Assembly (NCBI GenBank): GCA_030609365.1
Contig: JAUWCJ010000001.1
Coordinates: 1,266-65,265 of the forward strand
Length of the DNA stretch: 64,000 nucleotides
Direction of reading: 5' to 3'
Origin: Candidatus Eiseniibacteriota bacterium
GTDB lineage: Bacteria; Joyebacterota; Joyebacteria; Joyebacterales; Joyebacteraceae
Part shown: piece by piece, positions 24,069 to 40,266 of the stretch
Layout: every line of letters starts with the position of its first letter
Numbering within the stretch: the stretch's first letter is position 1
Program-made: the position numbers and the translations under genes
Notes under the pieces: model-generated
What the model was told of the DNA's origin: nothing
Databases searched by the model: none
What the model saw: the letters and a program-made list of their open reading frames with translations, nothing else

Positions 24069-26033
24069 TCAGACCTCCAGAGCGGCCGAGACCATTTTGT
24101 AGAGTTGCTCGTCCGTCAGGTTCTTCTGCTGAGCAGAGCCGGACGGGCAGGCGGCGATACACGCTCCGCAGCCCTCGCAGATCGCTTCCTTGATGCGTGC
24201 GACTTTCTTCTCGTCATCGAATTCCGCCGCGTCGTATGGACAGACCGAGATGCACACACGGCACCCGGCGCACGTGTCCTCGTCGATCACGGCGATAACC
24301 GGCTCGCGGTGGTACTCGGTCTCCGCGAAGAGAGCGGCGACCTTGCTCGCGGCGGCCGACGCCTGCGCGACGGACTCCGGAATGTCCTTGGGCCCCTGGG
24401 CCGAGCCCGCGAGATAGAACCCCGGTGTGAGGCTCTCTACGGGCCGAAGCTTCGGGTGCGCCTCGGACAGGAAGCCCCACTCGTCCGTGTGGATCTTGAG
24501 CATGCTGGCGAGCTTCGCGGCGGCCTCGTTCGGAACGGTGGCCAGGCCGAGCACGGCCATGTCAGCCGCGATCTCGATCTTCCTGCCGGAGAGTGTGTCG
24601 ACTCCCCAAACCATGACACGCCCGTCCTCCTCGAAGATCTTCGAGACCTTGCCGCGGATGTAGAGGACGTCGTCCTCCTCGGCCGCGCGGGTGTAGAATT
24701 CCTCGTAGCCCTTTCCGCCCGTCCGGACGTCCATGTAGAAGACGTACGCCTGGCCGTCGTGGACCTTGTGCCTATAGAGCATGGCGTGCTTCGTGAGATA
24801 CATGCAGCAGATCTTGGAGCAGTACGGCAGGTGGTTTTCGGTGTCCCTCGAGCCGCAGCAGGTCAGGAACACGACCTCGGAAGGTACTTCGCCGTCGGAG
24901 GGTCGCAGGACTTCTCCTCCGGTCGGGCCGGACGCCGAGAGCATCCTCTCGAACTGGAGGCTTGTGATGACGTCGGCGTACTTCCCGCCACCGTACTCGC
25001 CCAGGTTCTCAATCGGGTAGAGATCGTAGCCTGTGGCAACAATGATGGCCCCGACCTCCTCCTCAATGAACTCGTCCTTCTGCTCGTAGTCGATGCAGTC
25101 GAGAGGACAGACCTTCGCGCAGATACCGCATTTCCCGTCCTTGAGGAAGTAGGTGCAGTGCTCGGCATCGAGGACCGGTTTGTTCGGCACCGCCTGCGGG
25201 AAGGGAGTGTAGATGGCCTTGCGGTCGGCCAGCTGTTCGTCGAACTCGGACGGCGTCTTGGCCGGGCACTTCTCCACGCACAGACCGCAACCGGTGCAGA
25301 CGTCGCGATTGACGTAGGCGGCCTTCTTCCTGATCTTGACCTTGAAGTTGCCGACGTAGCCGCTGACGTCGTCAACCTCCGAGTAGGTCATGAGCCTAAT
25401 CTTCGGGTGCTGCGCGACCTCGACCATCTTGGGGGTCATGATGCACTGCGAACAGTCGAGCGTCGGGAAGGTCTCGGAGAGCTGCGCCATGTGGCCGCCG
25501 ATGGACGCCGACTTCTCGACGAGAATGACCTCGTGCCCCGCGTTGGCAACGTCGAGCGCCGCCTGGATCCCCGCAATGCCGCCACCCACCACCAGAGCCC
25601 GGGGGGTCATGGGTACTGATATGGGCTCGAGCGCTTCGTCGAGCCGGGCCTTCTCTATCATCACCTTGATGGTTCTGATGGCCTTGCTTGTCGCCGCTTC
25701 CTTGTCGCCCTGATGCACCCAGCTGCACTGCTCGCGGATGTTGGCGATCTCGACCTGATACTGGTTCATCCCCGCCGTCATCCCCGCCCGCCTGAACGTC
25801 GCCTCGTGAAGGGTCGGCGAACACGCCGCCACGATCACGCCGGTCAGGTTGTGCTTCTTGATGGCATCCTTCACCAGGTTCTGACCGGGATCGGAGCACA
25901 TGTAGGTGTAGTCGGTGGAGTAGGCCACTCCCGGATAGTCGGCCAGCTCCTCCGCCACACGCTTGACGTCCACCACGCCGGCGATGTTGGTCCCGCAGTG
26001 GCAAACGAAGACCCCAATGCGTTCTTCCATCAC
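24069..26033 (-). CDS. hdrA: Heterodisulfide reductase subunit A (HdrA, FAD/Fe-S)
   Basis: N-terminal GVFVCHCGTNIAG signature, a FAD-binding GxGxxG (VVGGGIAGIQAAL), multiple CxxCxxCxxxCP ferredoxin motifs, 654 aa. Confidence 0.85.
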   Translation of the reverse strand: MMEERIGVFVCHCGTNIAGVVDVKRVAEELADYPGVAYSTDYTYMCSDPGQNLVKDAIKKHNLTGVIVAACSPTLHEATFRRAGMTAGMNQYQVEIANIREQCSWVHQGDKEAATSKAIRTIKVMIEKARLDEALEPISVPMTPRALVVGGGIAGIQAALDVANAGHEVILVEKSASIGGHMAQLSETFPTLDCSQCIMTPKMVEVAQHPKIRLMTYSEVDDVSGYVGNFKVKIRKKAAYVNRDVCTGCGLCVEKCPAKTPSEFDEQLADRKAIYTPFPQAVPNKPVLDAEHCTYFLKDGKCGICAKVCPLDCIDYEQKDEFIEEEVGAIIVATGYDLYPIENLGEYGGGKYADVITSLQFERMLSASGPTGGEVLRPSDGEVPSEVVFLTCCGSRDTENHLPYCSKICCMYLTKHAMLYRHKVHDGQAYVFYMDVRTGGKGYEEFYTRAAEEDDVLYIRGKVSKIFEEDGRVMVWGVDTLSGRKIEIAADMAVLGLATVPNEAAAKLASMLKIHTDEWGFLSEAHPKLRPVESLTPGFYLAGSAQGPKDIPESVAQASAAASKVAALFAETEYHREPVIAVIDEDTCAGCRVCISVCPYDAAEFDDEKKVARIKEAICEGCGACIAACPSGSAQQKNLTDEQLYKMVSAALEV

Positions 26034-26039
26034 GCCTCC

Positions 26040-26966
26040 CTAAAACAGACTCTTCTCCGCCAGAACGGGTAGCGGGTCCACGGAGTTGTCAGTGAAGTCC
26101 AGGTGCTTCTTGTCAATGCCCAGTGCAATCCCCAGAAGCTGTGTGAAGTAGACCACCGGGACACGACTGAACCCCTTGACGCGCTCGGCCATCTTCTCCT
26201 GATGCCTGTCGAGATTATAGCGGCAGAGCGGGCAGGTCGTGACGATGATGTCGGCGTTGCGTTTGAGCGCGGAGACGACGACGTTCTGTGAGCATGACAC
26301 TGCCAGCTCCTCGTCGTTGACGACCTGGAACCCCCCGCAGCACTCTGTCTTCATCGGGAAATCGACCGCTTCGCATCCGAGCGTCTCGAGGAATTCCTCG
26401 AAGATCGTGGGCTGCTCGGGGTCGTCGAACTTCATCTCGTTCTTGGGGCGAAGCAACATGCACCCGTAGTAGGGCGCCACCTTGAGACCTTCGAGCTTCT
26501 TCGTCACGGCGGAGGCGACTTTGTCGTAGCCGACCACATCGCGCAGCATCTCGATGTAGTGGAGAACCTCCACCTGCCCCTCGTAGTCCTCGTGCGTGTA
26601 GCTCTCTACCTTCTTGCGCGCCTCGGTGTCCGCGCGGAGAAACAGGTTAGTCTTGTCCCTCTTGTCCTCGTCGTCGCGCATCACGTTGTTGCAGCGCTTG
26701 AGAACGTTGTAGCAGAAGGAGCACAGCGTGACGACCTTGTCGCCTAGCCGGGACGCGTAGGACAGGTTCCTTACCCCTGCCAGGACGTCCATCACGCTGT
26801 CGGTCACGAGCGGGTACACGGCGCCGCAGCAGGTCCAGATGGCGAGTTCCTCGAGCTCGACGCCCAGGGCCAAAGCACATTCTCTTGCGGATGTGTCGAA
26901 GTCTCGTGCCCTCTCGTGAAGCGTACAGCCCGGGTAGTACGGGATCTTCATCTCTTTCTCCGGCAC
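26040..26966 (-). CDS. hdrB: Heterodisulfide reductase subunit B-like (two CCG domains)
   Basis: Two Cys-rich CCG-domain signatures: YYPGCTL..WTCCGAVY and YYGCMLLRP..TECCGGF. Confidence 0.8.
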   Translation of the reverse strand: MPEKEMKIPYYPGCTLHERARDFDTSARECALALGVELEELAIWTCCGAVYPLVTDSVMDVLAGVRNLSYASRLGDKVVTLCSFCYNVLKRCNNVMRDDEDKRDKTNLFLRADTEARKKVESYTHEDYEGQVEVLHYIEMLRDVVGYDKVASAVTKKLEGLKVAPYYGCMLLRPKNEMKFDDPEQPTIFEEFLETLGCEAVDFPMKTECCGGFQVVNDEELAVSCSQNVVVSALKRNADIIVTTCPLCRYNLDRHQEKMAERVKGFSRVPVVYFTQLLGIALGIDKKHLDFTDNSVDPLPVLAEKSLF

Positions 26967-27413: not shown

Positions 27414-27680
27414 TTCGACCGGCCCCGGCCGCTGCTCACGCGATGGGGTCGTTCAAAGCGCCAGCTGCCTGTCAGAGCCGCGTCAGCGCGGTCGGTCGGT
27501 ACGAAAACCAGTCACCGCAACGTCAGCGGTCGGCGCGGCGGTGACATGTCGGTTGGATACTCTACTATGGAGCGCGCCACGAGTCAACCGCTTTCGGCCG
27601 CAAAACCCCACGAAAACGGCACATTTCTGCCCGAACAGCCGTGGACCACGCTCGTCCGCACGGCAGCCCGGAGGCGGGCA

Positions 27681-27709
27681 TCGACAGCACGATGGCCGCG
27701 CTGTATAAT
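27681..27709 (+). promoter_or_regulatory. Sigma-70-like promoter TCGACA-17-TATAAT for the beta-helix secreted protein gene
   Basis: -35 TCGACA at 27681-27686, a 17-nt spacer and a perfect -10 TATAAT at 27704-27709. RBS AAGGAGAGGAGG is at 27717-27728 and the ATG at 27737. Confidence 0.5.
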
Positions 27710-27736
27710 TTTAGCAAGGAGAGGAGGCGTGTCACG

Positions 27737-28798
27737 ATGCGAATGAGACTGCAGTGTTGTGCATTGCTTCTGCTTGCCACCCTGCCGGCCGCCGTCTGTG
27801 CCGGAGTCATCGTCGTCGACCCCGTGGGTGGCGGCGACTACGACAACATACCCGAGGCCATGTTCCACGGTACGGCTGACGACACGGTGCTCGTGTTGCC
27901 GGGCTTCTACGAGGTGGAGACGGGCATTCCTTACCCGTGGCCCATCCTCCTGACGGCCGACAGCCCCGCGCTCGTCAGCCAGGGAGGTGCTGCGCTGACG
28001 CTCATTTTCGGCAACGGTCTGATGCCGGCCCTCGACGTACGGGACGATACGTTCGGCGCGCGGGCCTTCATAGCAGGATTCACGTTCCAGTGGCTGGAGA
28101 CGCCGCTGGACTGGGGCTATCCGACGAGCGGGACCGTCTACTTCACGGACAACATCGTGAAGGGGTGCGAGACGGGAGTGGACGTCCGCATGGGTGAAGG
28201 GCTGGTCGCCAGAAACCTTATCGAGGGACCGGGCACCTACGGGATCCAGACCGGGCACTTCGAGGGCGTGATAGAGGACAACGAGGTGCACGGGTTCAAG
28301 GACGGCATCACGGGCGCGGACGGGAACACGGTGATACAGCGAAACCACATCCACGACAACGGGATCAGCGGTGTGGCGGGGTTCAACGACTGCATCGCCA
28401 TCGACAATGTCGTTGAGGACAACGGCTGGGCCGGGTTCAGCATCTCGTTCGACGCCCACCTGACGGGCAACGTCATCCGTGGCAACGGCACGGGCATCAA
28501 CTTCTGGGGTGGACCGCACAACGGGTTCCTGAACGGGAACGACATCTACGACAACGCGGAGTTCGCCGTGCACTCATACTGCGAAGAGCACATCCCCGTC
28601 CCGCCCGACTTCGACGCCACCATGAACTGGTGGGGTACAACCGACCCGGACGAAATCGCGGCGAGCATCGACGACTGCCACGACAGCATGTGGTCGGCCG
28701 TATGTTTCGTCGTCGAGCCGTGGTGCACGGCGCCCGGGTGCGACCCCACGCCCGCCGAGCTGTCGAGCTGGGGCGCGATCAAGGCTCTGTATAGATGA
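27737..28798 (+). CDS. Secreted right-handed parallel beta-helix repeat protein ending in SWGAIKALYR tag
   Basis: The start at MRMRLQCCALLLLATLPAAVCAG (signal peptide) is preferred to the longer ORF start at 27641. Repeated N-x-I-x-x-N / GxxG beta-helix turns run from NIVKGCETGVDV to GNDIYDNAEF, with an NWWGTTDPDEIAASIDD motif. The extreme C-terminus is ELSSWGAIKALYR. Confidence 0.6.
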   Translation: MRMRLQCCALLLLATLPAAVCAGVIVVDPVGGGDYDNIPEAMFHGTADDTVLVLPGFYEVETGIPYPWPILLTADSPALVSQGGAALTLIFGNGLMPALDVRDDTFGARAFIAGFTFQWLETPLDWGYPTSGTVYFTDNIVKGCETGVDVRMGEGLVARNLIEGPGTYGIQTGHFEGVIEDNEVHGFKDGITGADGNTVIQRNHIHDNGISGVAGFNDCIAIDNVVEDNGWAGFSISFDAHLTGNVIRGNGTGINFWGGPHNGFLNGNDIYDNAEFAVHSYCEEHIPVPPDFDATMNWWGTTDPDEIAASIDDCHDSMWSAVCFVVEPWCTAPGCDPTPAELSSWGAIKALYR

Positions 28799-29784
28799 TG
28801 GCAGAAGAACGGATCAGAAATGGATCGGCCGAGCCGGGGCTGAAACCCCGGCTCGGCGTCAGTACCTGTCTCCTGGGCGAGAACGTCCGCTACGACGGCA
28901 CGGAGAAGAGCGACCCGATCCTGCTTGGGGCGTTCGGAGACGCCGTTGAATGGGTGCCCATCTGCCCCGAGGTCGAGTGCGGCATGACCGTGCCCAGAGA
29001 CCCGATGCACCTGGCCGACGACCCGGACTCTCCGAGGCTCGTGACGACGGCCACGGGCGAGGACCAGACGGGGCGCATGCAGACGTGGATGCGGTCCCGT
29101 CTCGACGAGCTCGCCGGCTGTGACCCCTGGGGATTCGTGCTGAAGAGCAGATCACCCAGCTGCGGGCGGAGCGCTGTGCCGGTGCTGGACTCGACGGGCG
29201 CGCCGGCGGGCGAGGCCGCCGGGCTCTTCGCCGCCGCAGTCGCCGTGCGCTTCCCGCTGTTGCCGGTCGCGGACGAGAGCAGTCTGCGTGACGACTCGAT
29301 GTGGGACAACTTCATCGAGCGTCTCTTCTGCCTGAAGAGATACCGCGACTCCATGCAGCCGGAGGGGAGCCGCGAATCGCTGGTCGCGTTCCACGCCGCG
29401 CATGAGCTTCAGCTCATGGCGCACGACCGGGACGTTCTCCATGAGATGGAGGAACTGGTGGCGCGCTCGAGGAAGCTCCCACTGGATGAACTCTCTGCCA
29501 GATACGAGGAGCTCCTGACGACGGCGATGGAGTTCGTGGCCACCCCGGCGCAGAGTGCCGACGCTTTCCTGCACGCCCTGGGCCTCCTCGAGCGCTACAT
29601 GAACCCCGGCGAGAGGCAGGATGCGCTCGAGCTCATTGAGGAGCACCGCGGCGGGCGCGTCCCCTTGACCGTTCCCACGAAGCTCCTCGGGCGCTACATC
29701 CAGAAGTACCGCGTGGAGCACCTCGCCACTCAGTCCTGTTTCGCCTCGCACCCCAACGAACTGAAACTGCGAAATCGCTCCTGA
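28795..29784 (+). CDS. DUF523 (TudS-like) + DUF1722 fusion protein (YbgA family)
   Basis: N-terminal LGVSTCLLGENVRYDG..ILLGAFGDAVEWVPICPEVECGM matches DUF523 (Cys-rich 4Fe-4S site). The C-terminal helical half (..LVAFHAAHELQLMAH..) matches DUF1722. Confidence 0.65.
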   Translation: MMAEERIRNGSAEPGLKPRLGVSTCLLGENVRYDGTEKSDPILLGAFGDAVEWVPICPEVECGMTVPRDPMHLADDPDSPRLVTTATGEDQTGRMQTWMRSRLDELAGCDPWGFVLKSRSPSCGRSAVPVLDSTGAPAGEAAGLFAAAVAVRFPLLPVADESSLRDDSMWDNFIERLFCLKRYRDSMQPEGSRESLVAFHAAHELQLMAHDRDVLHEMEELVARSRKLPLDELSARYEELLTTAMEFVATPAQSADAFLHALGLLERYMNPGERQDALELIEEHRGGRVPLTVPTKLLGRYIQKYRVEHLATQSCFASHPNELKLRNRS

Positions 29785-29864: not shown

Positions 29865-30650
29865 ATGGGCGAACTCGAGGTCAGGGAACTCAGGTCCGGC
29901 GAGGAATCACTATGGCTCGGGTCTGATGCGGAAGGCGGGCCCGGTGCGGACGGCGAATCCGAGAAGCTCACCAAGTTCCGCCGCTTGTTCGAGGAGCGGT
30001 CCTCGCAGGACCCCCGCTCGTTTCTCGTGGCACTCGACGGGCCACGCGCCGCCGGGCGACTGAAGGGACTCTTCCTCAGCGACAAGCTCTACTTCGTCCA
30101 GGAACTCCACTGCGCGGAGGGTCTCCCCTGCAGCGTGGTCGAGGACGCGCTTGCGAGCTTCCTCGGTGACTCGTTCTCGCGCGACGGCATCGGGATCCTG
30201 AGCTGGGACCGGACGAAGAGCGCGGAGACCAACGCCGCGCTCGAGCGCGCGGGGCTTCTGATCGAGAAGAAGAAGGTGTTCGTTGCTCGCGGCCTGAAGG
30301 GTGACCTCCCCCGGCCCGGGACGCACTTCGCGTTCCGGACGCTTGCAGAGGCCGGGAAGGACGAGTTCCTGCCCGTGATGACGGAGGCCGCGGCTACGGG
30401 CGGGCCCTGCACGCCTCGGGGCTTTCGATGCTCGCTGAGCGCGGCGTCACACGGTACGTGGGCTCCACCGACACGCGGAACGGCCCGATGCTCAAGGTCT
30501 TCGAAGCGAACGGATGCCCGCAGACCGGCATACAGCGCTTCTACAAGCCCCCCGCCCGGTAGCGGCGGCGCACCGGACCGATTCTCGTTCGCGGTAGCAG
30601 CGGCAGTGTGCCCGATTCTCCTTTTGACTGCAGGCAAGCTCTCCCTATAG
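29865..30650 (+). CDS. GNAT-like acetyltransferase candidate, probably frameshifted near 30400-30430
   Basis: The first ~180 aa read as a protein (..ALERAGLLIEKKKVFVARGL..). After ~30420 the called frame becomes low-complexity. The +2 frame gives a clean GNAT-like C-terminus ..LAERGVTRYVGSTDTRNGPMLKVFEANGCPQTGIQRFYKPPAR* ending at 30562. Confidence 0.35.
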   Translation: MGELEVRELRSGEESLWLGSDAEGGPGADGESEKLTKFRRLFEERSSQDPRSFLVALDGPRAAGRLKGLFLSDKLYFVQELHCAEGLPCSVVEDALASFLGDSFSRDGIGILSWDRTKSAETNAALERAGLLIEKKKVFVARGLKGDLPRPGTHFAFRTLAEAGKDEFLPVMTEAAATGGPCTPRGFRCSLSAASHGTWAPPTRGTARCSRSSKRTDARRPAYSASTSPPPGSGGAPDRFSFAVAAAVCPILLLTAGKLSL

Positions 30651-30702
30651 AGTCATCTCTACGTATAGTCATCTCCATCATGGAGTCGTCTTCACTGACG
30701 AC
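30624..30702 (+). promoter_or_regulatory. Promoter-like TTGACT-16-TATAGA plus operator-like repeats upstream of the XDH-family operon
   Basis: -35 TTGACT at 30624-30629 and -10 TATAGA at 30646-30651. Direct repeats TATAGAGTCATCTC (30646-30659) and TATAGTCATCTCC (30664-30676). Palindrome TCCATCATGGA (30674-30684). Inverted repeat GTCGTC-N6-GACGAC (30685-30702). The region is AT-rich for this genome. Confidence 0.4.
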
Positions 30703-30739
30703 ATCCTGTCCTCCGGAGAACCGCTCCCGACGAGGTGAA

Positions 30740-33085
30740 ATGAGCAAGCGAGAGATTCAGGATGGTCCGCCCGAGAGGGACCGCACCGCGGCGGTCGGCG
30801 CGCCGGTCAAGCGCGTTGACGCGTCCGACAAGGTCACCGGACGGGCCGTCTATCTGGACGACATGGTCATGCCCGGCGTCCTGCACGCCGCGCTGGTCTT
30901 CCCCGGGTGCGCCCACGCGGTGCTCAGAGGGGTGGACGCGTCGGCCGCGAGGTCGATGGCTGGCGTGCGTTCCGTCCTGACAGCCGACGACATCCCCGGA
31001 GAGAATCAGGTCGGCGTCATCGATACCGATCAGCCGCTTCTTCCCTTCGACAGGATAAGATACGAAGGAGACGCCGTGGCCGTCGTTGTGGCCGAGACGG
31101 CGGTGCTGGCACGCGAGGCGGCGGACGCCGTGTCCGTCGACCTGACGGAACTGCCGGGCGTCTTCGACGCCGTCCGTGCGATGGAGCCGGACGCGCCGCT
31201 CGTTCACGAGAGCGGGAACGTTTTCCTCCACGACAAGGTCAGGAAGGGCGATGTCGACGCCGGGTTCGATGCGGCCGACATCATAGTGGAGCGCGAGTTC
31301 CGCACCCACCACCAGGAACACTGCTACCTCGAGCCTCTGGCGGCGCTCGCTGTACCTGCGGACAACGGGTCGATGACGGTCTACGGGACGATGCAGTGCC
31401 CGTTCTACGTGCAGAAGGCCGTGGCCGATGTGCTGGGGCTTCCACTCGCATCCGTCCGCGTCATCCAGACCGTCACGGGCGGTGGGTTCGGTGGGAAGGA
31501 GGATGTACCCAGCGAGATTTGTGCGTGCGCGGCGCTCGCCGCGTGGAAGACGGGAAGCGCGGTCAAGCTCGTCTACTCCCGGGAAGAGGATTTCCTCCGC
31601 TCGAGCAAGCGCCATCCCATGCGCGTGACGTTCAAGCTGGGCGCCAAGCGCGACGGCACGTTCACGGCCGCGAAGATTCGCGCGGTCGCGGATGGCGGAG
31701 CCTACACGACACTGTCCCCGGTCGTCGTGTTCCGCGCGGCCGCGCACGCGACGGGCCCCTACGAGATCCCGAATGTCTGGACAGACGTCTACGGCGTCTA
31801 CACCAACCGCCAGACGGCGGGCGCATTCAGGGGGTTCGGGCAACCTCAGGTCATCTTCGCCAACGAATCGGTCATAGACGAGGTGGCCGACGCCATCGGG
31901 ATGGACCCCGTGGACATCCGTCTCAAGAACTGCCTGGACGTCGGGAAGCGGACGGCGACGAACCAGCTTCTGACAGAGAGCGTGGGGCTGAGAGAGACGC
32001 TTGAACTCGCACGGGAGCTCTCGGGATGGGACGGGAAGCGGGCGGCGCAGGGAGGACGCGGCGGCGAACAACCGGGACGCGCATCGGACGCTCGCGACCA
32101 CATCAAGCGCGGCATCGGGGTCGGGTCCATCTATTACGGTGTCAGCCTGGGCGCGAAGGGACTGGCGCTCGACGGGTCCGGCGCCCACATCAACGTCTAC
32201 CGCGACGGCTCGGTCAGGATCGGCGTGGGCGGCACAGAGATGGGACAGGGCCTCCTGACCGTACTCGCACAGATCGCGGCCGACAGTCTCGGCGTGCCGG
32301 TCGGCTTCGTTCACGTCGAACGCGCGGACACGAGCGTCGTCCCGGACAGCGGCCCGAGCGTCGCTTCGCGGACCACACTCATGACTGGAAACGCCGTGAT
32401 CGACGCCGCGCGGAAGCTTAGGACCGTCATGGGAGAGGTCGCGGCCGACAGTCTGGGGCTCGACCCGAGCGAGATCGAGTTCGATGGTGGTACCGTCGGT
32501 TCAGCAGAGAAGAACGTGACCTTCGCGGAGCTCGCCGAGCAGTGTTGGGTGAGAAACGTCAGCACGGCCGCCGACGGCTGGTACGCCGCACCCGAGTCCA
32601 CGTTCGACGAGAACGGCCAGGGTGACGCCTACGCCGTCTACTCGTACGCGACACACGTAGCGGAGATTGAAGTGGACACGGAGACCGGACGGGTAACGGT
32701 CGTGAGGATCACGGCCGCGCACGACGTCGGGCGAGTGATGAACCCCGTGACGCTCGAGGGGCAGATAGAGGGAGGCGTGCTGCAGGGCATCGGGATGGCG
32801 CTCTACGAGCAGATGAAGAGCAAGGGCGGAGCGGTCGTGACGCCGGACTTCTCCACCTACATCATCCCCACGGCGATGGACACGCCGGCGATCCGGACCG
32901 TGTTCGTCGAGGATCCCTATTCGAAAGGTCCCTTCGGCGCGAAGGGCATCGGCGAGACTCCGGCCATGCCGGGAGCCGTTGCCGTGGCGAATGCCGTGTC
33001 CAATGCGCTCGGCGTGCGATTCCACGAGCTGCCCCTGACCCCTGAGCGCGTCAGGCGGGCGGTGTCTGAGAGGAAGAATTCATGA
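30740..33085 (+). CDS. Xanthine dehydrogenase/aldehyde oxidase family molybdopterin-binding subunit (orphan large subunit)
   Basis: The start at MSKREIQ.. (RBS GAGGTGA 5 nt upstream) is preferred over the ORF start at 30608. Ald_Xan_dh hammerhead and MoCo-binding domain motifs are present (..KRVDASDKVTGRAVYLDDM.., ..QTVTGGGFGGKED.., ..GVSLGAKG.., ..IEGGVLQGIGMALYE..). It has no signal/Tat motif, no N-terminal 2Fe-2S domain and no adjacent small or FAD subunit genes. Confidence 0.85.
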   Translation: MSKREIQDGPPERDRTAAVGAPVKRVDASDKVTGRAVYLDDMVMPGVLHAALVFPGCAHAVLRGVDASAARSMAGVRSVLTADDIPGENQVGVIDTDQPLLPFDRIRYEGDAVAVVVAETAVLAREAADAVSVDLTELPGVFDAVRAMEPDAPLVHESGNVFLHDKVRKGDVDAGFDAADIIVEREFRTHHQEHCYLEPLAALAVPADNGSMTVYGTMQCPFYVQKAVADVLGLPLASVRVIQTVTGGGFGGKEDVPSEICACAALAAWKTGSAVKLVYSREEDFLRSSKRHPMRVTFKLGAKRDGTFTAAKIRAVADGGAYTTLSPVVVFRAAAHATGPYEIPNVWTDVYGVYTNRQTAGAFRGFGQPQVIFANESVIDEVADAIGMDPVDIRLKNCLDVGKRTATNQLLTESVGLRETLELARELSGWDGKRAAQGGRGGEQPGRASDARDHIKRGIGVGSIYYGVSLGAKGLALDGSGAHINVYRDGSVRIGVGGTEMGQGLLTVLAQIAADSLGVPVGFVHVERADTSVVPDSGPSVASRTTLMTGNAVIDAARKLRTVMGEVAADSLGLDPSEIEFDGGTVGSAEKNVTFAELAEQCWVRNVSTAADGWYAAPESTFDENGQGDAYAVYSYATHVAEIEVDTETGRVTVVRITAAHDVGRVMNPVTLEGQIEGGVLQGIGMALYEQMKSKGGAVVTPDFSTYIIPTAMDTPAIRTVFVEDPYSKGPFGAKGIGETPAMPGAVAVANAVSNALGVRFHELPLTPERVRRAVSERKNS

Positions 33086-35082
33086 GATGCCACGCAGGAC
33101 CGTCCGCACCGTTGCTGACGCTCCTCATGCTCGCCGTGGCGCTCGCTGCCGCGACCGCCACGGCGAGCGAGTCTCCGGATGCAGGAAACCATGGCAGCGC
33201 CGAGTACCTGCCCATGCGAGATTCGTCCAAGCTCCTCGCTGCCTCGCCGTCCGCCGGCGTGATGGAGGAGGCTCTGCGAGCTCTCGCCCTCACGCGTGAC
33301 GACCTCTCGTTCCGGACGGACTACGCCGACCAGCCGGATTCGTTCCGGATAGCCGTGGTCGACCGGCTGCTCGCGCGCCCTCTCGAGACGGAGAGCTACG
33401 TCGCAGGGTTCGCGGATGAGATCTGCGCCATCGCCTCTCTGGAGGGACTCGTGGGCATCTGCGCCCGCGACCTCGATCTGATCATCGATGAACCGACGCG
33501 CGTCGAACCAACGGAGCCCATGGAACCCAAGTCGATCGGACCGACCGCGCTCGATGTGCTGCTGCCCGCGATGAGTGAGGCCGCGGGGCTGATCGCCACG
33601 GCGTTCGATGGCCTGTCGGAGGAGCAGCGGCGGTTCGTGGCGCTTCACGCGCCGTCGATCCTGGACGAGGAAGAGTTCGACCCGGACCGGCCGATCGACG
33701 AACGGGACCGCGAGGCCGAGGAGGAAGAGGCGCTCGCGGACGAGCTCCTCCGCATTGCCAGTCTCGTTGACTACGATCGTCTGGCGGCCGCGGGCGCCGT
33801 GATAGCGCGAGCGGTTGACAGCTCCATCCCGCTCCTGGTGGACGACCCGATGAACCTCCCGAGAACGCATACCGACTACGAGCTCGAGAGGACGGCTTCC
33901 TCGTGGCTGGCCTCGGGCGACGTCCTGAACATCATGGAGACAGAGGCAGGGACCGTGATCATCGGGGGGCCGGGACGTACCACATATAGAGGGGGCGTCG
34001 CGCTCATCATCGATGTCGGCGGCGACGACGTATACGTGGGCGACGTGGCAGCGGCCCTGAGGGATCTTCCCGTGTCCATCGTGATAGACCTCTCCGGCGA
34101 CGACATCTACCGCGGTGACACGCACTCGCTGGGCGCGGGGTTCATGGGTGTAGGCGTGCTCGCGGATCTCGAGGGTGACGATGTTTACACCGCAGGAGAC
34201 TTCTCGCTGGGTGCGGGTCTGTTCGGGGTCGGGATTCTGGTGGACGCAGCGGGCAACGACAGCTACTCGGGCGACACGTGCACCGAGGGCGCCGGCGCGT
34301 TCGGCATCGGAGTCCACCGGGACAAGGGCGGCAACGACAGCTATAACGCCGCGCTCTTCTCGCAGGCTTTCGGGTTCGTCGGAGGCGCGGGGCTGCTGCA
34401 CGATGTGGCAGGGAACGACGTCTACTTCGCTGGAGGGAAGTACACCGACGAGATACGGTACTTCGACCACTACATCAGCCTCTCACAAGGATTCGGGTTC
34501 GGCTGGCGGCCCGACGCCTCCGGTGGCATCGGGATCCTCATCGACGAGGCCGGGAACGATGTCTACGTCTCCGATATATTCGGCCAGGGTTCAAGCTACT
34601 GGTTCGCGGTCGGGGGGCTGGTCGACTACAGCGGGAACGACCAGTACGTCTCCTACCAGTACGCCCAGGGCGCGGGCACTCACATCACGGTCGCCGCACT
34701 GATCGACTGCGACGGCGATGACAACTACGTGTCGAAGGGCGTGTCGCAGGGGTGTGGCCACGATCTTGCCGTAGGCATCCTGCACGACCTGGCCGGTGAC
34801 GACAGCTACACCTGCCACGACCTCTCCCAGGCCGCCGGAAACGCCAACGGCATCGGGATCCTGATGGACGACGCGGGCAACGACGCGTACTCGGTCCGGA
34901 ACCCGAACAACACACACGGGTATGGGAACCTCCGGCGCGACTATGGGAGCATCGGCGTCTTCCTGGACTGCGGTGGCGCCGACTCCTACTCCGGCAGAGG
35001 AGCGGACGGCACGTGGTGGACCGGGAGCATGCACGGCATCGGGGTCGATGAGGAGAAGGCGTTGGGAGGTGGTGCTGAATGA
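33082..35082 (+). CDS. Secreted protein with ~12 tandem ~26-aa GxGxhxDxxGNDxY repeats (predicted beta-helix/beta-roll-like)
   Basis: Signal peptide MRCHAGPSAPLLTLLMLAVALAAATATA. Residues ~305-655 are repeats such as VSIVIDLSGDDIYRGDTHSLGAGFMG, VGVLADLEGDDVYTAGDFSLGAGLFG and VGILVDAAGNDSYSGDTCTEGAGAFG. The start overlaps the XDH stop (ATGA). Confidence 0.6.
   Translation: MRCHAGPSAPLLTLLMLAVALAAATATASESPDAGNHGSAEYLPMRDSSKLLAASPSAGVMEEALRALALTRDDLSFRTDYADQPDSFRIAVVDRLLARPLETESYVAGFADEICAIASLEGLVGICARDLDLIIDEPTRVEPTEPMEPKSIGPTALDVLLPAMSEAAGLIATAFDGLSEEQRRFVALHAPSILDEEEFDPDRPIDERDREAEEEEALADELLRIASLVDYDRLAAAGAVIARAVDSSIPLLVDDPMNLPRTHTDYELERTASSWLASGDVLNIMETEAGTVIIGGPGRTTYRGGVALIIDVGGDDVYVGDVAAALRDLPVSIVIDLSGDDIYRGDTHSLGAGFMGVGVLADLEGDDVYTAGDFSLGAGLFGVGILVDAAGNDSYSGDTCTEGAGAFGIGVHRDKGGNDSYNAALFSQAFGFVGGAGLLHDVAGNDVYFAGGKYTDEIRYFDHYISLSQGFGFGWRPDASGGIGILIDEAGNDVYVSDIFGQGSSYWFAVGGLVDYSGNDQYVSYQYAQGAGTHITVAALIDCDGDDNYVSKGVSQGCGHDLAVGILHDLAGDDSYTCHDLSQAAGNANGIGILMDDAGNDAYSVRNPNNTHGYGNLRRDYGSIGVFLDCGGADSYSGRGADGTWWTGSMHGIGVDEEKALGGGAE
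33994..35050 (+). repeat. In-frame tandem repeat array (about 12 units of ~78 nt) encoding the GNDxY repeats
   Basis: The periodicity is visible in the translation: each unit is hydrophobic-G-h-L-h-D-x-x-G-(N/D)-D-x-Y followed by a Gly-rich linker. The units have diverged at the nucleotide level, so they are not recent duplicates. Confidence 0.5.
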
Positions 35083-36110
35083 GAACCTTCGGTACTGTCC
35101 TTCTTCTGCTCGTTCTGATGGCCGGACCCGCCGTCTCCCAGAATGTGGGTGCGGAGGTTGAGACGGAGGTCGCTGAGTCCGACACGGCCGAGCTCGCGGA
35201 GCTCACGCCCGTGGAGCTGTTTCTGCGGGCGTCCTCGTCGGCGCTCCAGTTCGAGCACATGCGCGAGCCGTCCCGGTGCATCCTGGTATCGAACCACGAG
35301 GAGTCGCTCCCCTATCTCGTCACCCGGCTCGACACGGACGACGCGAGGGAGCGGCACGCGCTGGAGGACATCCTTGTCAGGATCGGCACCGCGGCCGCCG
35401 ATCCGGTCATAGAGGCGTTCCTGTTCGAGGCCGGGAGAACGGAGACAACTCGCGGCGCCAGGCTGGCGGCGGCGGTGCTGGGCAAAATCGGTGATGCCCG
35501 CGCCGTGGGCCCGCTCGCCTCCGTCCACGACCATCACGACTGGAAGGTGCGCGGGGCCATCGGCGGAGCGCTCGGCAGGATCGGCACGGCCGAGACGGTT
35601 CATCCTCTAGTTTCACTTCTCCTGGACGAGAACGAGGCGGTCAGGAAGAGCGCGGCCGTCGGTCTGAGGCGCGTCGCCGTACGCGCCCGTGACGACGAGG
35701 CGCCGGACCACGACGCGGCCAAGGCCCTCGACGCGGACGTCATCGAATCGCTCGCGCGTGCCCTCGGGGATCCCAGCTACGCGGTGAGATACAGCTCGGC
35801 CGATGCGCTTGCCCGCATAGGTGAGACGGCGCTGCCGCTCCTGTTTGAGATCGGTGAGGGCGGGGCGGCCGAGGCTCGATTGATGGCGCTTCGGGCCGCC
35901 GGCAAAGTCGGCTCTCGTAGGGCTCTCAAGCCGCTGGTGAGAGCGCTCAAGGACTCCGACTGGGCGGTGCGGGCGCACGCCGCAGCCGCCATCGGAACGA
36001 TCGGAGCAGACAAGCGGAGCCGTCGAGCGCTGGAGCGTCTGGTCGCTTCCGACCCCCATCCGTTCGTCGTCGCATCGGCCGCCGCCGCACTCGACTCGGA
36101 AGACCGCTAG
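35079..36110 (+). CDS. Secreted HEAT-repeat protein (PBS-lyase HEAT-like repeats)
   Basis: Signal peptide MRTFGTVLLLLVLMAGPAVSQ. Repeated ~30-aa units carry ..D/E..VR..A..ALG.IG... (e.g. DWKVRGAIGGALGRIG, NEAVRKSAAVGLRRVA, SYAVRYSSADALARIG, DWAVRAHAAAAIGTIG). The start overlaps the upstream stop (ATGA). Confidence 0.65.
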   Translation: MRTFGTVLLLLVLMAGPAVSQNVGAEVETEVAESDTAELAELTPVELFLRASSSALQFEHMREPSRCILVSNHEESLPYLVTRLDTDDARERHALEDILVRIGTAAADPVIEAFLFEAGRTETTRGARLAAAVLGKIGDARAVGPLASVHDHHDWKVRGAIGGALGRIGTAETVHPLVSLLLDENEAVRKSAAVGLRRVAVRARDDEAPDHDAAKALDADVIESLARALGDPSYAVRYSSADALARIGETALPLLFEIGEGGAAEARLMALRAAGKVGSRRALKPLVRALKDSDWAVRAHAAAAIGTIGADKRSRRALERLVASDPHPFVVASAAAALDSEDR

Positions 36111-38182
36111 CCTCCGCTGCGGGCGGCCATGAGCTCCCGCAGACGGGCCAGGTTGGCCGCGATGCCGGGGTCGTTCGGGCTCAGACGCCTGGCCTCCTCC
36201 AGTTCGCGCAGCGCCTCTTCGTAGCGTCCGGCCATTGCCAGGATGACACCGAGGTCATGCCGCGCCTGTGCATAGGTCGGGTCTATCTCGACGGCACGAG
36301 CGTACGCTCCGGCCGCCTCCGGGAGCCTCCCGGTCTCCTCGAACACCCTGCCGAGCGCGTCCCACGCCTCTGTGAATCGAGGATCGGCCATCACCGCGCA
36401 CTTGAGGTGGTACTCCGCCCGCTCGAGGTCGCCCTCCTGCGCCAACACCAGGCTCAGGTTCATGTGCGCCTGCTCCGTGTACTGGTCGAGAGCGATCGCT
36501 TCCTCGAACCACGCCTTCGCCTCCGCGACCTCTCCCCGCCCGAGCAGGAAGCTCCCGATGTTGTTCCGAACGGACGCGAGGCTCGAGTCCTTCTCGGCCG
36601 ATGACAGATACGCGGAGAGCGCCTCGTCGCTGCGACCCAGCTCTTCGAGCGCCAGGCCCATGCTGTTGTACGCCTTTGCGTATCCGGGCGATATCTCTAT
36701 GGCGCGGCGGTACTCCCTCACGGCGTTCTCGTACATCCCCTGCGCAGCACTGGCGCGCCCGAGGGTCATGTGCGTCTGAGCGCGGTCTCCCACGTGTGTG
36801 TCGTAGAAATCGTGGTTCACGAAAAGCCCTATCCCGGCGAGCGCCAGCAGCGCGACTGCGAGTTCCTTCACCCTGCCTCGCGCCGCGAGTCCGCACAGCC
36901 TGAGAACGGCCGCCGACGCAAACAGGAGGAGAAACGGAACAAGCGGCAACCTGAAGCGGGCGTTGACGAAGAACAGGAGGACGCCCGCCGTGTAGGACAG
37001 AACGAAGAGCATGGCGAGCGTGGCTGCCTTGTTCCTCCGTGCGGTGAAGAACATGCCGAGCACGGCCAGCGGCGCCATGATTCCGAAGTTGAGCCACCTG
37101 AGCCAACGGAACACCGGTGACATACGACCGAAGAAGTAGATGTCCTTGTTGTTGGCCAGCTCATAGCTGTCCCAGAAGAGCACGAACTTCCGGACGTAGA
37201 GCCTGGCAGCGGCCCCGGGGTTTCCGAGGAGAAACTCCCTTCCCCTCCCGTACCAGAAGCCCGATACCTCGCTCGGCTTCAGATCGCGCCCCAGCTGGGA
37301 TTCCGCTATCCGAACGGCGTCCTCGTTCTCCCATGACTCCCCGAGCACCGGCAGCACCGCCGACGCGCCGTCCGACGCGGAGTTGTTCCCGATGAAGAAG
37401 TTGATGCCGCCCTGAGACGCGATGGGAACGAAGTCCCGCTCGACGGCGTAGTTCCGCAGCGTCACGGGAAGAATCACCGCAGCGACACCGAGCACGACGA
37501 CCGCGAACCGCGCCGCACCCGCCTTGAACGCCGCCGGAAGTTCCACCGGCGCGCCGGCTTCGCCGGAGGTGCTTCGCGCCCGCCACCACATCCAGCAGAA
37601 CAGCGCCGGCAGGAACACGAGAACACTGGGGCGCGCGATGCCGGATATCCCCATCACGGCTCCCGCCGCGAACCAGCGTCCGCGGCCCGGTGACTCGTCC
37701 GCGCGCAGAAGCGCGCTCATCAACAGGACGTCGAGGAGCACTACCAGCGAAACAATCAGAAGCTCGTTGCTGAAGTAGAGGAACAGCGGATAGAGAGCGG
37801 CGACGGCCGCTCCCAACAACGCCTCCCTCTCTCCGAACATGCGCCTGCCGAGGAAGTACACGGCAACCGGAGTCAGGGCCGTGCAGGTCGCCTGCACAAG
37901 GCGCGCCGCCTGCAGGCTCTCCCCGAGTACCGAGAAGACGAGACCGAGGAGGTACGGATAGAGCGGCGCTCTGAAGAACACCGTGCTCCCCAGCCAGTCG
38001 CCCGCCGCGAGCGCCCTGGCCCACTCCACGTGGTACAGCTCATCCAGTATCGGGAAGCCCGCGAGCGGGCTCCCGCGCAGGTGAAGCACGTACACGAACC
38101 GGAGCACCCACGCTACTGCAAAGATGACTCCCGCCCTCAGAAGCAGCCTCTTCCGGATCTCCGCGTCGCGTTTCGGGACCAA
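36107..38182 (-). CDS. GT-C membrane glycosyltransferase (PMT_2/ArnT-like, GT39/83 family) with C-terminal TPR repeats
   Basis: N-terminal polytopic region begins DELYHVEWARALAAGDW..FFRAPLYPYLLGLVFSVLG..RLVQATCTALTPVAVYFLGRRMFG, typical of PMT_2/ArnT-family glycosyltransferases with ~10+ TM helices. The C-terminal ~250 aa are TPR repeats. Confidence 0.7.
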   Translation of the reverse strand: MVPKRDAEIRKRLLLRAGVIFAVAWVLRFVYVLHLRGSPLAGFPILDELYHVEWARALAAGDWLGSTVFFRAPLYPYLLGLVFSVLGESLQAARLVQATCTALTPVAVYFLGRRMFGEREALLGAAVAALYPLFLYFSNELLIVSLVVLLDVLLMSALLRADESPGRGRWFAAGAVMGISGIARPSVLVFLPALFCWMWWRARSTSGEAGAPVELPAAFKAGAARFAVVVLGVAAVILPVTLRNYAVERDFVPIASQGGINFFIGNNSASDGASAVLPVLGESWENEDAVRIAESQLGRDLKPSEVSGFWYGRGREFLLGNPGAAARLYVRKFVLFWDSYELANNKDIYFFGRMSPVFRWLRWLNFGIMAPLAVLGMFFTARRNKAATLAMLFVLSYTAGVLLFFVNARFRLPLVPFLLLFASAAVLRLCGLAARGRVKELAVALLALAGIGLFVNHDFYDTHVGDRAQTHMTLGRASAAQGMYENAVREYRRAIEISPGYAKAYNSMGLALEELGRSDEALSAYLSSAEKDSSLASVRNNIGSFLLGRGEVAEAKAWFEEAIALDQYTEQAHMNLSLVLAQEGDLERAEYHLKCAVMADPRFTEAWDALGRVFEETGRLPEAAGAYARAVEIDPTYAQARHDLGVILAMAGRYEEALRELEEARRLSPNDPGIAANLARLRELMAARSGG

Positions 38183-38742
38183 TGGACCTCCATCTCTGAG
38201 GTGCGCTCACGGCCTCATAACAGCGCTTCGTCAAGATTATTTGCGCTCGTCCACTCGCGTGCGGAGCGAACGCAGAACCTATCCTAGCGGAAACAGGCCG
38301 CGACACAAAGCAAGCATGCCAAGCCCGACGCCCTGCGTAGACGGCGTCAAAGCGACATTACGGCGATATGGGGCAATTGGCCTGAATCCCTCGCACACCG
38401 CATCGAGACAGGAAAACACCGTCTGACTTCCTGCTCAACTTGTCTCAACATGTGCGCTTTGTACGAAAAACTCATTGACCCGGAGGCGGGGATGCTATAG
38501 ACTACTAGTCGAACTACGGGAGATTATCACCAAGCACATGCGAGCGTGATTGTGTGTCGCCTGGGCTCACACGAGTTCAGGTGGCAAGTGTGTGCAGGTG
38601 CCGAGTCGGGGGCCGGCATCTTCACCGTGCATCCGCGTCGACTGATGATGCAGCAGTGCTTGGTGGTGAAGCAACATCTGGCTACTGGTCAATTCGAAGT
38701 GAAGCAGAGAGTAACTCACAAGAAGGAAAGGAGACGGACGGC

Positions 38743-39405
38743 ATGAAAAGGCTAACGTTTGCAGCTGTTGTGCTGGCGTTCGCGCTCCTCGTTGTGCAGA
38801 CCGCCGCGGCCGACGATTCGTACATGATCGGCATGCAGGGAGTCGGCAGCCTGATGAAGAGTCCCGTTGTCTACAGCGGGAGCTTCATGTGGGGTCTCGT
38901 TGGTTCGTGGGAGATCACGCTCGACGACTCCATGTGGCCCGGCGAGGCAGACAGCACCGCGAGGTTCGACTACATATGGGACAACTTCTTCGCCGACCAC
39001 TACATCGACACGACGGGTGCGGAGAGCTGGACCGGTTACTTCGATGGCGCGACACTGATGGCGGCTCCGCGCTTCCGGTTTGACACCATCTCTCCGGTAG
39101 GCGCGATCGAGGGCGACATCACCTTCTCGATTCTCGTGCGCGACTGGTACGCGGACGGGATACTGTCGCAGCAGGAAAAGCATCACAACCTGAACCTGAG
39201 TGCGACGCTCAGTCTGAATCCGAGCCTCGGCGAGGGCTATTTCGAGAATATGTGCGGGCACGGTTCGGTCAGCTCGGGCAACTTCAACTTCCATAACCCA
39301 CCGCTGGACGACAACCTGCAGATAGTCGGACAGATCCAGACCTACACTTGCCCCAGCCCGGTGGAAGAGACGACCTGGGGCGCGATGAAGGCGCTGTTCA
39401 GGTAG
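38743..39405 (+). CDS. Secreted protein, paralog 1 of a tandem pair, ending in TWGAMKALFR tag
   Basis: The start at MKRLTFAAVVLAFALLVVQTAAADD (RBS AGGAAAGGAG) is preferred to the ORF start at 38554. It shares SPVVYSGS.., GSWEITLDD..WP, YIWDN and GYFDG with the downstream paralog. The C-terminus is EETTWGAMKALFR. Confidence 0.55.
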   Translation: MKRLTFAAVVLAFALLVVQTAAADDSYMIGMQGVGSLMKSPVVYSGSFMWGLVGSWEITLDDSMWPGEADSTARFDYIWDNFFADHYIDTTGAESWTGYFDGATLMAAPRFRFDTISPVGAIEGDITFSILVRDWYADGILSQQEKHHNLNLSATLSLNPSLGEGYFENMCGHGSVSSGNFNFHNPPLDDNLQIVGQIQTYTCPSPVEETTWGAMKALFR

Positions 39406-39484: not shown

Positions 39485-40132
39485 ATGCGCGCACTTCTGA
39501 TAGTTTTGGCTGTTGCGGCCCTTGCAACTGCGGCCTACGGCCAGGAGACGTTTGTTTGGTTCTACGGCGCGGGAACGGGCGACTTCATGGACAGCCCCGT
39601 GGTCTTCGGCGGCGCCATGGATCCCGGCGGTGACATAGAGCTCGGATCGTGGTCAATCACGATCCCGGACGACGGTTGGCCCACTGACCCGGTCGACCGG
39701 TCCACCTACATCTGGAACACGTACTACGCGCCGAACTACACACCCGGCAACCCGAGCTTCTGGAAGGGCTACTTCGACACAGAGCACGGTGCACCCGACA
39801 TGAACGCTCTGTTGATCGTCGACGACACGAACGGCGGCGTCATGACCGGTATCTGCTCCGTTGAGATCCAGGTTCAGGATCTGAACAACAACGGCGTGCT
39901 CGACGAGGGCGAGTTCTGCAGCGGCAGCCTTTCCGGTCTCGTCATCATCATCCGGGACGGCACGGGCGTGTACGACGGCATGTGCGGAACGGGCAACTAC
40001 TTCGGCAGCTACATCAAGGACTGCCCGCTCACGACCGAGACCTGGAACTTCGGTATGTATCTCTGGCTCGAGGACTGCACCACGCCGGTCGAGGACGCGA
40101 CCTGGGGCGCCATCAAGGCCCTGTATCAGTAG
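39485..40132 (+). CDS. Secreted protein, paralog 2 of a tandem pair, ending in TWGAIKALYQ tag
   Basis: Signal peptide MRALLIVLAVAALATAAYG. Motifs SPVVFGGA.., GSWSITIPDDGWP, YIWNT and GYFDT match the upstream paralog. The C-terminus is EDATWGAIKALYQ. Confidence 0.6.
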   Translation: MRALLIVLAVAALATAAYGQETFVWFYGAGTGDFMDSPVVFGGAMDPGGDIELGSWSITIPDDGWPTDPVDRSTYIWNTYYAPNYTPGNPSFWKGYFDTEHGAPDMNALLIVDDTNGGVMTGICSVEIQVQDLNNNGVLDEGEFCSGSLSGLVIIIRDGTGVYDGMCGTGNYFGSYIKDCPLTTETWNFGMYLWLEDCTTPVEDATWGAIKALYQ

Positions 40133-40266
40133 TTCGGATTTCGCGAGCACCAGGAGCACCCGGCCCGCGATATACCTGACACGAGTCCTCGTACTGCGGT
40201 GCGGGGACTCGTCAGATGAATCAGGGTAGCGTGGCAGGTGCTCTGCAAACAGGAACAACGATACAG

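Follow-up and report, generated by a model that had tools for sequence, protein, structure and literature searches.

The nearest described counterparts of the repeat protein reported here are found among the beta-rolls of RTX proteins and the right-handed parallel beta-helices. Region IV of MpIBP (MpAFP), part of an RTX adhesin of Marinomonas primoryensis, is an atypical beta-roll; its twelve continuous repeats are 19 residues long (XGTGND-XUXU-GGXUXG-XUX), Ca2+ is held on one edge only, and Asp residues bridge the ions (PMC6891781). Canonical RTX sequences (GGxGxDxUx; PF00353) carry two nonapeptide turns per 18 residues and are exported by means of a C-terminal, uncleaved signal of the type I secretion system (T1SS). 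The beta-helices considered here comprise pectate-lyase-like and PbH1 proteins, PL6 lyases, the epimerases AlgG and AlgE4, tailspikes and the autotransporter passengers TibA, UpaB and EtpA. In a 64,000-nucleotide stretch of DNA from Candidatus Eiseniibacteriota (GenBank assembly GCA_030609365.1, contig JAUWCJ010000001.1, positions 1,266 to 65,265 of the forward strand; this whole stretch is called the window), an open reading frame (ORF) encodes a 666-residue exported protein with a 26-27-residue unit that carries a single RTX-like Asp/Gly turn and is repeated to form what is predicted to be a twelve-coil parallel beta-solenoid. The gene is followed directly by that of an exported HEAT-repeat protein, and the pair recurs in several uncultured phyla.

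The repeat gene overlaps its neighbours by 4 nucleotides at either end, its start with the stop of an upstream MoCoBD gene and its stop with the start of the downstream HEAT gene. The features of the pair are as follows (a slash marks signal peptidase cleavage).

33082..35082, + strand: whole repeat gene, an ORF for the 666-residue exported repeat protein (exact match to the ORF bounds)
33082..33168, + strand: signal peptide, residues 1-29, with n-region, hydrophobic core and A-T-A/S-E cleavage site (read by eye)
33211..33906, + strand: acidic, all-helical N-domain, residues ~44-275 (from sequence, charge and model)
33985..35049, + strand: predicted twelve-coil parallel beta-solenoid, residues 302-656 (from units, logo, DSSP of the model and fold matches); coils 1-6 at 302-326, 327-352, 353-378, 379-404, 405-431 and 432-478 (the last with a 20-residue insertion), coils 7-12 at 479-505, 506-532, 533-559, 560-586, 587-619 and 620-656
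34363..34764, + strand: conserved arc patch of coils 5-10, residues 428-561 (from identity over 150 cluster representatives)
35079..36110, + strand: HEAT-repeat partner gene, 343 residues, with its own signal peptide (…PAVSQ/N), translationally coupled to the repeat gene

An earlier note, made from the letters of the window, had described about twelve consecutive repeats with an invariant G(N/D)DxY core in a secreted protein, and both statements are borne out. The N-terminus (MRCHAGPSAPLLTLLMLAVALAAATATA/SE) reads by eye as a Sec signal peptide, the region of which is a helix (residues 9-26) in the AlphaFold2 model, and similar Sec-type N-termini were seen by eye in all 14 diverse family members inspected. 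The motif G-[N/D/A]-D-x-Y occurs twelve times, at residues 314, 339, 365, 391, 417, 444, 491, 518, 545, 572, 599 and 632, with spacings, in this order, of 25, 26, 26, 26, 27, 47, 27, 27, 27, 27 and 33. In 20,000 shuffles of the repeat region, which consists of 20% Gly and 12% Asp, the motif appeared 0.13 times on average and three times at most. A logo built from 504 units (12 coils of 42 homologues) reproduces the unit consensus x-x-(F/G)-G-h-G-h-L-h-D-x-x-G-(N/D)-D-x-Y-x-(A/S/G)-x4-Q-G-x, where h is hydrophobic. Numbered from the motif glycine, the residues of the turn and the short strand are D(-3) 100%, G(0) 100%, N/D(+1) 86%, D(+2) 100% and Y(+4) 99%, those of the flanks G(-7) 75%, L(-5) 75%, Q(+11) 45% and G(+12) 61%. 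The unit is thus longer than an RTX nonapeptide and yet retains an RTX-like Asp/Gly turn in every coil, as the same note had proposed.

At the DNA level no tandem repeat was found in the gene by Tandem Repeats Finder, except for a trivial 12-bp array, and the units are therefore regarded as ancient and diverged. In contrast to the variable-copy repeats of adhesins, the number of coils is fixed: none of the 145 representatives of at least 600 residues exceeds twelve strict D..G.D.Y coils, the mode being 11-12. In the family, the units are mostly 27 (716 cases) or 26 (321) residues apart and have one G-x-D turn in each coil; the two longer units, of 47 and 33 residues, are found again at these sizes across the representatives.

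AlphaFold2, run on a 42-sequence alignment, yielded a model with a helical domain at ~48-270 followed by a beta-solenoid at ~277-656 (predicted local distance difference test, pLDDT, 79.5; predicted template modelling score, pTM, 0.84). According to DSSP the long strand of each coil spans -8..-3 and the short one +2..+5, and a third, very short strand lies near +13/-12. A second model, of a 64%-identical natural fusion with a HEAT protein (pTM 0.79), also contains a confident solenoid, and in both models the conserved arcs of coils 5-10 have a pLDDT below 50. The structure prediction that the earlier note had called for, with beta-helix or beta-roll geometry in mind, thus gives a beta-solenoid, and its suggestion that a unit equals one rung fits the model, in which each unit is predicted to form one coil. 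The helical domain in front of the solenoid bears a net charge of -32 over residues 30-275; a conserved D-L-x-F-R-x-D-Y-x-D-x-D-S-F-R-L...P motif lies close to its start, and its remainder is weakly conserved (mean identity 0.31).

Library searches (Pfam to 2025, NCBIfam of June 2026, PDB 2026) did not connect the repeat to a known family. Pfam-A and NCBIfam scans of the repeat protein returned no family at E<=1, and a Pfam scan of all 42 aligned members yielded nothing above noise (E<=0.1), with PF00353 (HemolysinCabind) absent from the matches. Against PDB sequences, phmmer with the repeat protein found no match at E<=10, the whole-family profile found only compositional matches to the helical N-domain and no RTX or other repeat family, and a 26-column profile of the single unit retrieved neither an RTX protein nor the MpIBP region IV entry 3p4g (best E = 1). 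These negatives are meaningful, since the same libraries detect Beta_helix (PF13229), NosD (PF05048) and FG-GAP in other proteins of the window. The FG-GAP/integrin repeats (PF01839, PF13517), which form beta-propeller blades in contrast to the solenoid predicted here, have no match in the repeat protein but are detected in the neighbouring C25 peptidase. NosD, Beta_helix, polysaccharide lyase (PL) and glycoside hydrolase (GH) models showed no hidden Markov model (HMM) similarity to the protein or its 42 aligned members, and hhalign of the repeat family against the window's own NosD-like protein (27641-28798) gave nothing. Membership in RTX, PbH1/NosD and FG-GAP is rejected by these scans, profiles and hhalign comparisons, and as judged by sequence comparison the repeat belongs to no described family in the Pfam, NCBIfam and PDB libraries used. 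The earlier note had likewise been unable to assign it to RTX, PbH1, FG-GAP or a known domain of unknown function, and the HMM search it had set as a check for an existing repeat family produced no confident match. A literature search for the D-x-x-G-(N/D)-D-x-Y motif or the solenoid-HEAT pair in the host phyla retrieved nothing relevant. With PADLOC there was no match for the solenoid protein, for which reason a role in anti-phage defence was rejected; the HEAT partner gave only generic HEAT matches.

Among known folds the closest match is 3p4g, the non-enzymatic region IV of MpIBP, the units of which, when their sequence is recovered via a synthetic consensus, read h-D-x-G-T-G-N-D-x-h-Y-h. 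The D-x-x-G-N/D-D segment of the present repeat corresponds to the Ca2+ turn and x-Y-x-(A/S/G) to the XUXU strand, while the GGXUXG non-Ca loop is replaced by the Q-G arc, which is ~7 residues longer and bears a Gln ladder. Both proteins have twelve continuous coils, but only G-N-D-x-(h/Y) is common to their sequences, the period is 26-27 instead of 19, and the Ca2+ turn lacks its G-T/G-G first half here. Furthermore, region IV is a module of a giant T1SS adhesin and binds ice through its Ca2+-turn face, whereas the protein described here is a conserved single-copy orthologue with an N-terminal Sec signal and a HEAT partner, and its conserved face is that of the arcs. Because hhalign detects no homology and the register of the turn is shifted, the relation to MpIBP is considered an analogy of design and not family membership. 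With canonical RTX repeats the protein shares the G-x-D-x-U turn-plus-strand core and the richness in Gly and Asp and, by analogy, likely the logic of cation-dependent folding after export (PMC6891781). It differs in its single turn every 26-27 residues, where RTX coils have two in 18, and in its N-terminal Sec-type signal peptide, where RTX proteins have a C-terminal T1SS signal; no T1SS genes for an ATP-binding cassette (ABC) transporter, membrane fusion protein (MFP) or TolC were found among the annotated neighbours, 24 to 46 kb of the window. Right-handed parallel beta-helix structures superpose at 4-12% identity, which is typical of generic beta-helix superposition. The likeness to them would be that of the modelled parallel beta-solenoid fold, and the invariant D-x-x-G-N/D-D-x-Y turn in every coil is present in none of the beta-helix families listed above. 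Taken together, we hold the assignment of the fold and the definition of the family with high confidence.

Conservation is concentrated on the arcs of the central coils. Over 150 representatives, and beyond the D/G/D/Y ladders, at least 97% identity is observed for Q428, Q469, G470, G474, R476, Q502, Y506, W507, Y527, Q529, G530, H534, G557, H560 and D561, and at least 90% for Q556, which completes a Gln ladder of Q428, Q469, Q502, Q529 and Q556. Arc identity in coils 7-10 is 0.68-0.79, compared with 0.53-0.60 for the strand/turn core, while the arcs of coils 1-2 (0.28-0.36) are, like the N-domain, free to vary. The arc patch of coils 5-10 is accordingly put forward as a candidate ligand-binding or active site, and the low pLDDT of the arcs would fit a conformation set by an unmodelled ion, ligand or partner. 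In the set from Eisenbacteria and Zixibacteria C558 is conserved, but across the 150 representatives it is not universal, which weakens a catalytic Cys-His dyad formed by C558 and H560. The solenoid carries a net charge of -36 here (family median -27, range -47 to -14). Such an acidic charge would fit two stacked Asp ladders in need of about a dozen divalent cations; as stacked carboxylates need counter-cations, we infer cation binding from the invariant D(-3) and D(+2).

The family is large and coherent in its taxonomy. A profile search of 1.84 billion cluster representatives (50% identity) retrieved at least 4,297 clusters with E<=1e-3, of which 2,281 reach E<=1e-30, word-indexed homologue searches retrieved at least 1,580-2,252 proteins, and a scan of GTDB species genomes gave at least 560 loci. 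All homologues are named 'hypothetical protein' or, in the case of fusions, 'HEAT repeat'. They occur in Candidatus Eisenbacteria, Zixibacteria, TA06, WOR-3 and Stahlbacteria, as well as in metagenome-assembled genomes (MAGs) labelled Ignavibacteria, Gemmatimonadota and Calditrichota; among the matches listed in the homologue searches and the GTDB genome scan there were only MAGs and no cultured host. Orthologues correspond one to one at 43-95% identity, and the window is assigned to Eisenbacteria by its 92-93% identity to loci L005-L007. The signal peptides of many family members, and that of the HEAT partner, end in A-Q or S-Q (…FSVFAQ/ED, …PAVSQ/N). In Bacteroidota an N-terminal pyroglutamate is formed after signal peptidase I cleavage according to the 'Q-rule', which these ends recall; this would fit an affiliation with the Fibrobacteres-Chlorobi-Bacteroidetes (FCB) group.

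The HEAT partner matches HEAT_2 (PF13646) with E = 6e-33 and 113.4 bits (cut-off 27.7) and HEAT (PF02985) with 63.8 bits (cut-off 23.5), and its counterpart at locus L001 reaches 136.1 bits. In fold comparison the HEAT part resembles CpcE/F and YibA, the likeness to phycobilisome-lyase-type HEAT proteins (CpcE/CpcF, NblB, E. coli YibA) being that of a HEAT-repeat solenoid; against the equivalog model it scores 65.9 bits, far below the 330-bit cut-off. Whereas CpcE/CpcF-type proteins are tied to phycobiliproteins, the present partner is exported and tied to a beta-solenoid. Across the 83 loci compared, the HEAT protein is the only universal neighbour, found on the same strand within 2.5 kb at 74 of the 78 loci with room downstream, and the pairing is kept in lineages at 45% identity with otherwise different surroundings. 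Of the top 150 cluster representatives, about half have the length of a fusion (850-1,030 residues), and all fusion-length proteins that were scanned (6 of 6 homologues and 3 of 3 representatives) have C-terminal HEAT repeats. Four loci (L038, L051, L067, L082) show no detectable HEAT partner in the 2.5 kb downstream. At two of these (L038, L051), and also at L043, a protein of ~113-146 residues (neighbour cluster 36) directly follows the solenoid gene and may be an alternative or degenerate partner. Rare N-terminal fusions carry a PDZ domain (four representatives, one of which also has an N-terminal nucleophile (Ntn) hydrolase domain) or an M14 carboxypeptidase lipoprotein (one representative), and they are taken as genuine because there is no second signal peptide at the junction. 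An apparent RibD fusion (P0203), in contrast, retains an internal signal peptide and was therefore rejected as gene-call read-through.

Starting from the repeat, its family and predicted fold, the linkage to the partner and the conserved patch, we favour, with moderate confidence, a Sec-exported Ca2+-type beta-solenoid that is paired with a HEAT protein in the cell envelope. The protein would be exported by Sec, most likely to the periplasm, and would form, behind its acidic helical N-domain, a rigid solenoid of twelve parallel coils from a previously undescribed unit. Each coil would run from the long strand h-G-h-L-h through the tight turn D-x-x-G-(N/D)-D and the short strand x-Y-x-(A/S/G), with the invariant Tyr at an inward-facing 'U' position, into a long arc ending in Q-G. 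Stacking of the turns would place two invariant Asp ladders along one edge, and these would bind a row of Ca2+ bridging successive coils as in MpIBP region IV and RTX rolls, so that the solenoid is proposed to become rigid only after export. The working surface would be the other face, where the Gln ladder and the invariant Arg, His, Asp, Tyr and Trp residues on the arcs of coils 5-10 probably bind or process an extended envelope polymer such as a peptide, peptidoglycan or a glycan. The protein would act as an obligate pair with the exported HEAT protein encoded immediately downstream and fused to it in many lineages. The PDZ and M14 carboxypeptidase fusions suggest a peptide-containing envelope substrate, and a peptide or peptidoglycan is named here as a tentative, rather doubtful choice of ligand. 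More speculative still is a wider picture of a near-universal envelope machine in Zixibacteria, Eisenbacteria, WOR-3, TA06 and related uncultured FCB-group phyla, in which a Ca2+-rigidified solenoid would offer a new catalytic or recognition site on the arcs of coils 5-10; the substrate of this site would be the stem peptides of peptidoglycan or some other extended polymer of the envelope, the HEAT protein would serve as substrate clamp or adaptor, and the PDZ and M14 fusions would be lineage-specific elaborations of this pathway.

Several observations weigh against this interpretation. Foldseek gave no significant match in the PDB, the best being 3p4g with E 0.076, and the hhalign probability against 3p4g is 0.1-0.2% (E 0.5 with the family profile, 0.31 with the unit profile). 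Relative to 3p4g the register of the turn is displaced by one residue on either side of G-N-D, for Asp as well as for Tyr. Binding of Ca2+ by the solenoid is deduced from the Asp ladders and the net charge, and we consider it somewhat better than an even proposition. The geometry of the predicted site is affected by the fact that the conserved arcs are the least confidently modelled part of the protein. A periplasmic rather than a surface location we infer from the signal peptide together with the apparent absence of a type IX secretion system (T9SS) or T1SS signal. Finally, the PDZ and peptidase fusions occur in only ~5 of 150 representatives, and, the HEAT gene apart, there is no conserved operon from which a function could be read.

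The interpretation has to be weighed against rival readings. A beta-helix enzyme (a polysaccharide lyase, epimerase, hydrolase or peptidoglycan-active protein) would have its active site in the arc patch and use the Asp/Gly turns for stability or for catalytic Ca2+ as in PL1, PL6 and PL9 lyases. R476, H534, H560, D561, Y506, W507 and Y527 are of the kinds such enzymes employ, the arcs are better conserved than the scaffold, one family member is fused to an M14 carboxypeptidase, and three lineages have GT-C/TPR and GT4 glycosyltransferases in the vicinity. These glycosyltransferases are not universal neighbours, however, the missing HMM similarity to enzyme models and the low identity to beta-helix structures speak against an enzyme, the top structural analogue is non-enzymatic, and C558, which adjoins H560, is not conserved family-wide; we regard this reading as rather unlikely. 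The same invariant His and Asp residues (H534, H560, D561), joined in some lineages by C558, could instead serve a periplasmic, NosD-like chaperone or carrier that binds Cu, Zn, Fe or sulfur species for a client held by the HEAT protein. The resemblance of that partner to E/F-type bilin-lyase solenoids, which hold cofactor and client, would agree with such a role, as would arcs that are poorly modelled without a ligand. Since there is neither a NosD HMM match nor a conserved NosFY-type ABC transporter or metalloenzyme client nearby, and only three potential metal ligands are invariant, a metal carrier other than for Ca2+ appears improbable.

A canonical RTX or MpIBP-type adhesin or ice-binding domain, secreted by a T1SS to the surface and using the repeats as its adhesive or ice-binding face, is suggested by the match to 3p4g, the G-N-D-x-hydrophobic turn present in both and the twelve continuous coils. 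It is nevertheless very improbable: no HemolysinCabind match is found at E<=1, the period is not 18 or 19 and hhalign detects no homology, the signal is of the N-terminal Sec type with no ABC, MFP or TolC gene in the annotated surroundings, the coil number is fixed and orthologues are one to one, unlike those of fast-evolving variable-copy adhesins, and the conserved surface is the arc face rather than the Ca2+-turn face. That the protein has no specific function and reflects a chance Gly/Asp bias or a mis-called ORF in high-GC DNA could be argued from its composition and from a 517-residue antisense ORF (32917..34470) overlapping the gene. This antisense ORF was rejected as a high-GC artefact because thousands of homologues support the + frame, and the shuffle test, the invariant residues in these homologues, the confident models and the conserved gene pairing leave a chance origin with practically negligible probability. 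The Sec-exported, Ca2+-type solenoid paired with a HEAT protein thus remains the favoured explanation.

The family has no Pfam, NCBIfam or PDB representative in spite of its size, and both a new Pfam/InterPro repeat family and a solenoid-HEAT domain pair could cleanly be defined from it. As a new class of solenoid repeat with one RTX-like turn per 26-27-residue coil, it extends the range of known designs that lie between RTX rolls with two sides, the one-sided MpIBP roll with its 19-residue unit, and beta-helices with three sides. A core function in the cell envelope is suggested by the fact that the family is nearly universal in several uncultured phyla, keeps a fixed architecture and has a sharply conserved surface. 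In practice, D-x-x-G-(N/D)-D-x-Y at 26-27-residue spacing is a simple annotation marker for the host genomes.

Beyond the HEAT gene the neighbours are lineage-specific and include MoCoBD, TatC, RNase H-like, HDOD, PhzF, patatin-Omp85, GT4 and GT-C/TPR proteins. A derivation of function from synteny was rejected, MoCoBD being confined to Eisenbacteria, TatC to 19 loci and the downstream RNase H-like and HDOD genes to ~13 loci. BLAST neighbour cluster 1 mixes TPR proteins with sigma-54 regulators and is not one orthologous group. At the 19 loci with TatC, from Zixibacteria and Ignavibacteria-labelled MAGs (e.g. L001, L027, L030-L032), the start of the solenoid gene overlaps the stop of tatC, and the gene belongs to a conserved block of housekeeping type made up of CutA1, S-adenosylmethionine (SAM) hydroxide adenosyltransferase-like, dCMP deaminase, NrdR, TatC, solenoid, HEAT, DNA glycosylase, M50 peptidase and DUF4292 LolB-like protein. 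As the family proteins are devoid of twin-arginine motifs, the link to Tat is probably positional only.

In the window, the gene upstream of the repeat gene (30608-33085, +) encodes a molybdopterin subunit of the xanthine dehydrogenase family (MoCoBD_1/2, Ald_Xan_dh_C), and its pairing with the repeat gene is kept in Eisenbacteria alone (cluster 7, 18 loci). Its listed GTG start is probably too far upstream, because the Pfam match begins at residue 77 and a sigma-70-like site (30624-30653) lies inside the extension. Convergent with the HEAT gene and overlapping its end by 4 nucleotides is the gene of a 691-residue membrane protein (36107-38182, -) with an N-terminal PMT_2 domain (GT-C glycosyltransferase) and C-terminal TPR repeats. 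GT-C/TPR or TMEM260-like genes lie a few genes from the solenoid-HEAT pair in two further lineages (L036/L037/L044/L046/L054 and L058/L066/L077/L081), a loose and possibly coincidental association.

Further downstream, a 1,539-residue protein (40216-44835, +) combines Peptidase_C25 (1.6e-54), CARDB, FG-GAP/beta-propeller, Beta_helix/NosD-like and C-terminal FlgD_ig domains and, from its domains, resembles a secreted protease of the gingipain kind that ends in a T9SS-type C-terminal domain; most eisenbacterial loci have its gene in synteny (cluster 4, 19 loci). Two adjacent paralogues of 283 and 215 residues (38554-39405 and 39485-40132, +), with no Pfam match, precede the C25 peptidase as a conserved tandem pair in Eisenbacteria (cluster 11, 13 loci). 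On the other side of the repeat gene, an HdrA-like FAD/4Fe-4S protein (653 residues) adjoins a CCG-domain, HdrB-like protein (24069-26966, -), which suggests a heterodisulfide-reductase-type module. The NosD-like protein mentioned above is a separate beta-helix protein of 385 residues encoded on the + strand (PF05048, 1e-8), and is followed by a gene for a 2-thiouracil desulfurase with DUF1722 (28795-29784, +). The sole tRNA of the window is a tRNA-Met (CAT) at 48793-48869 (+).

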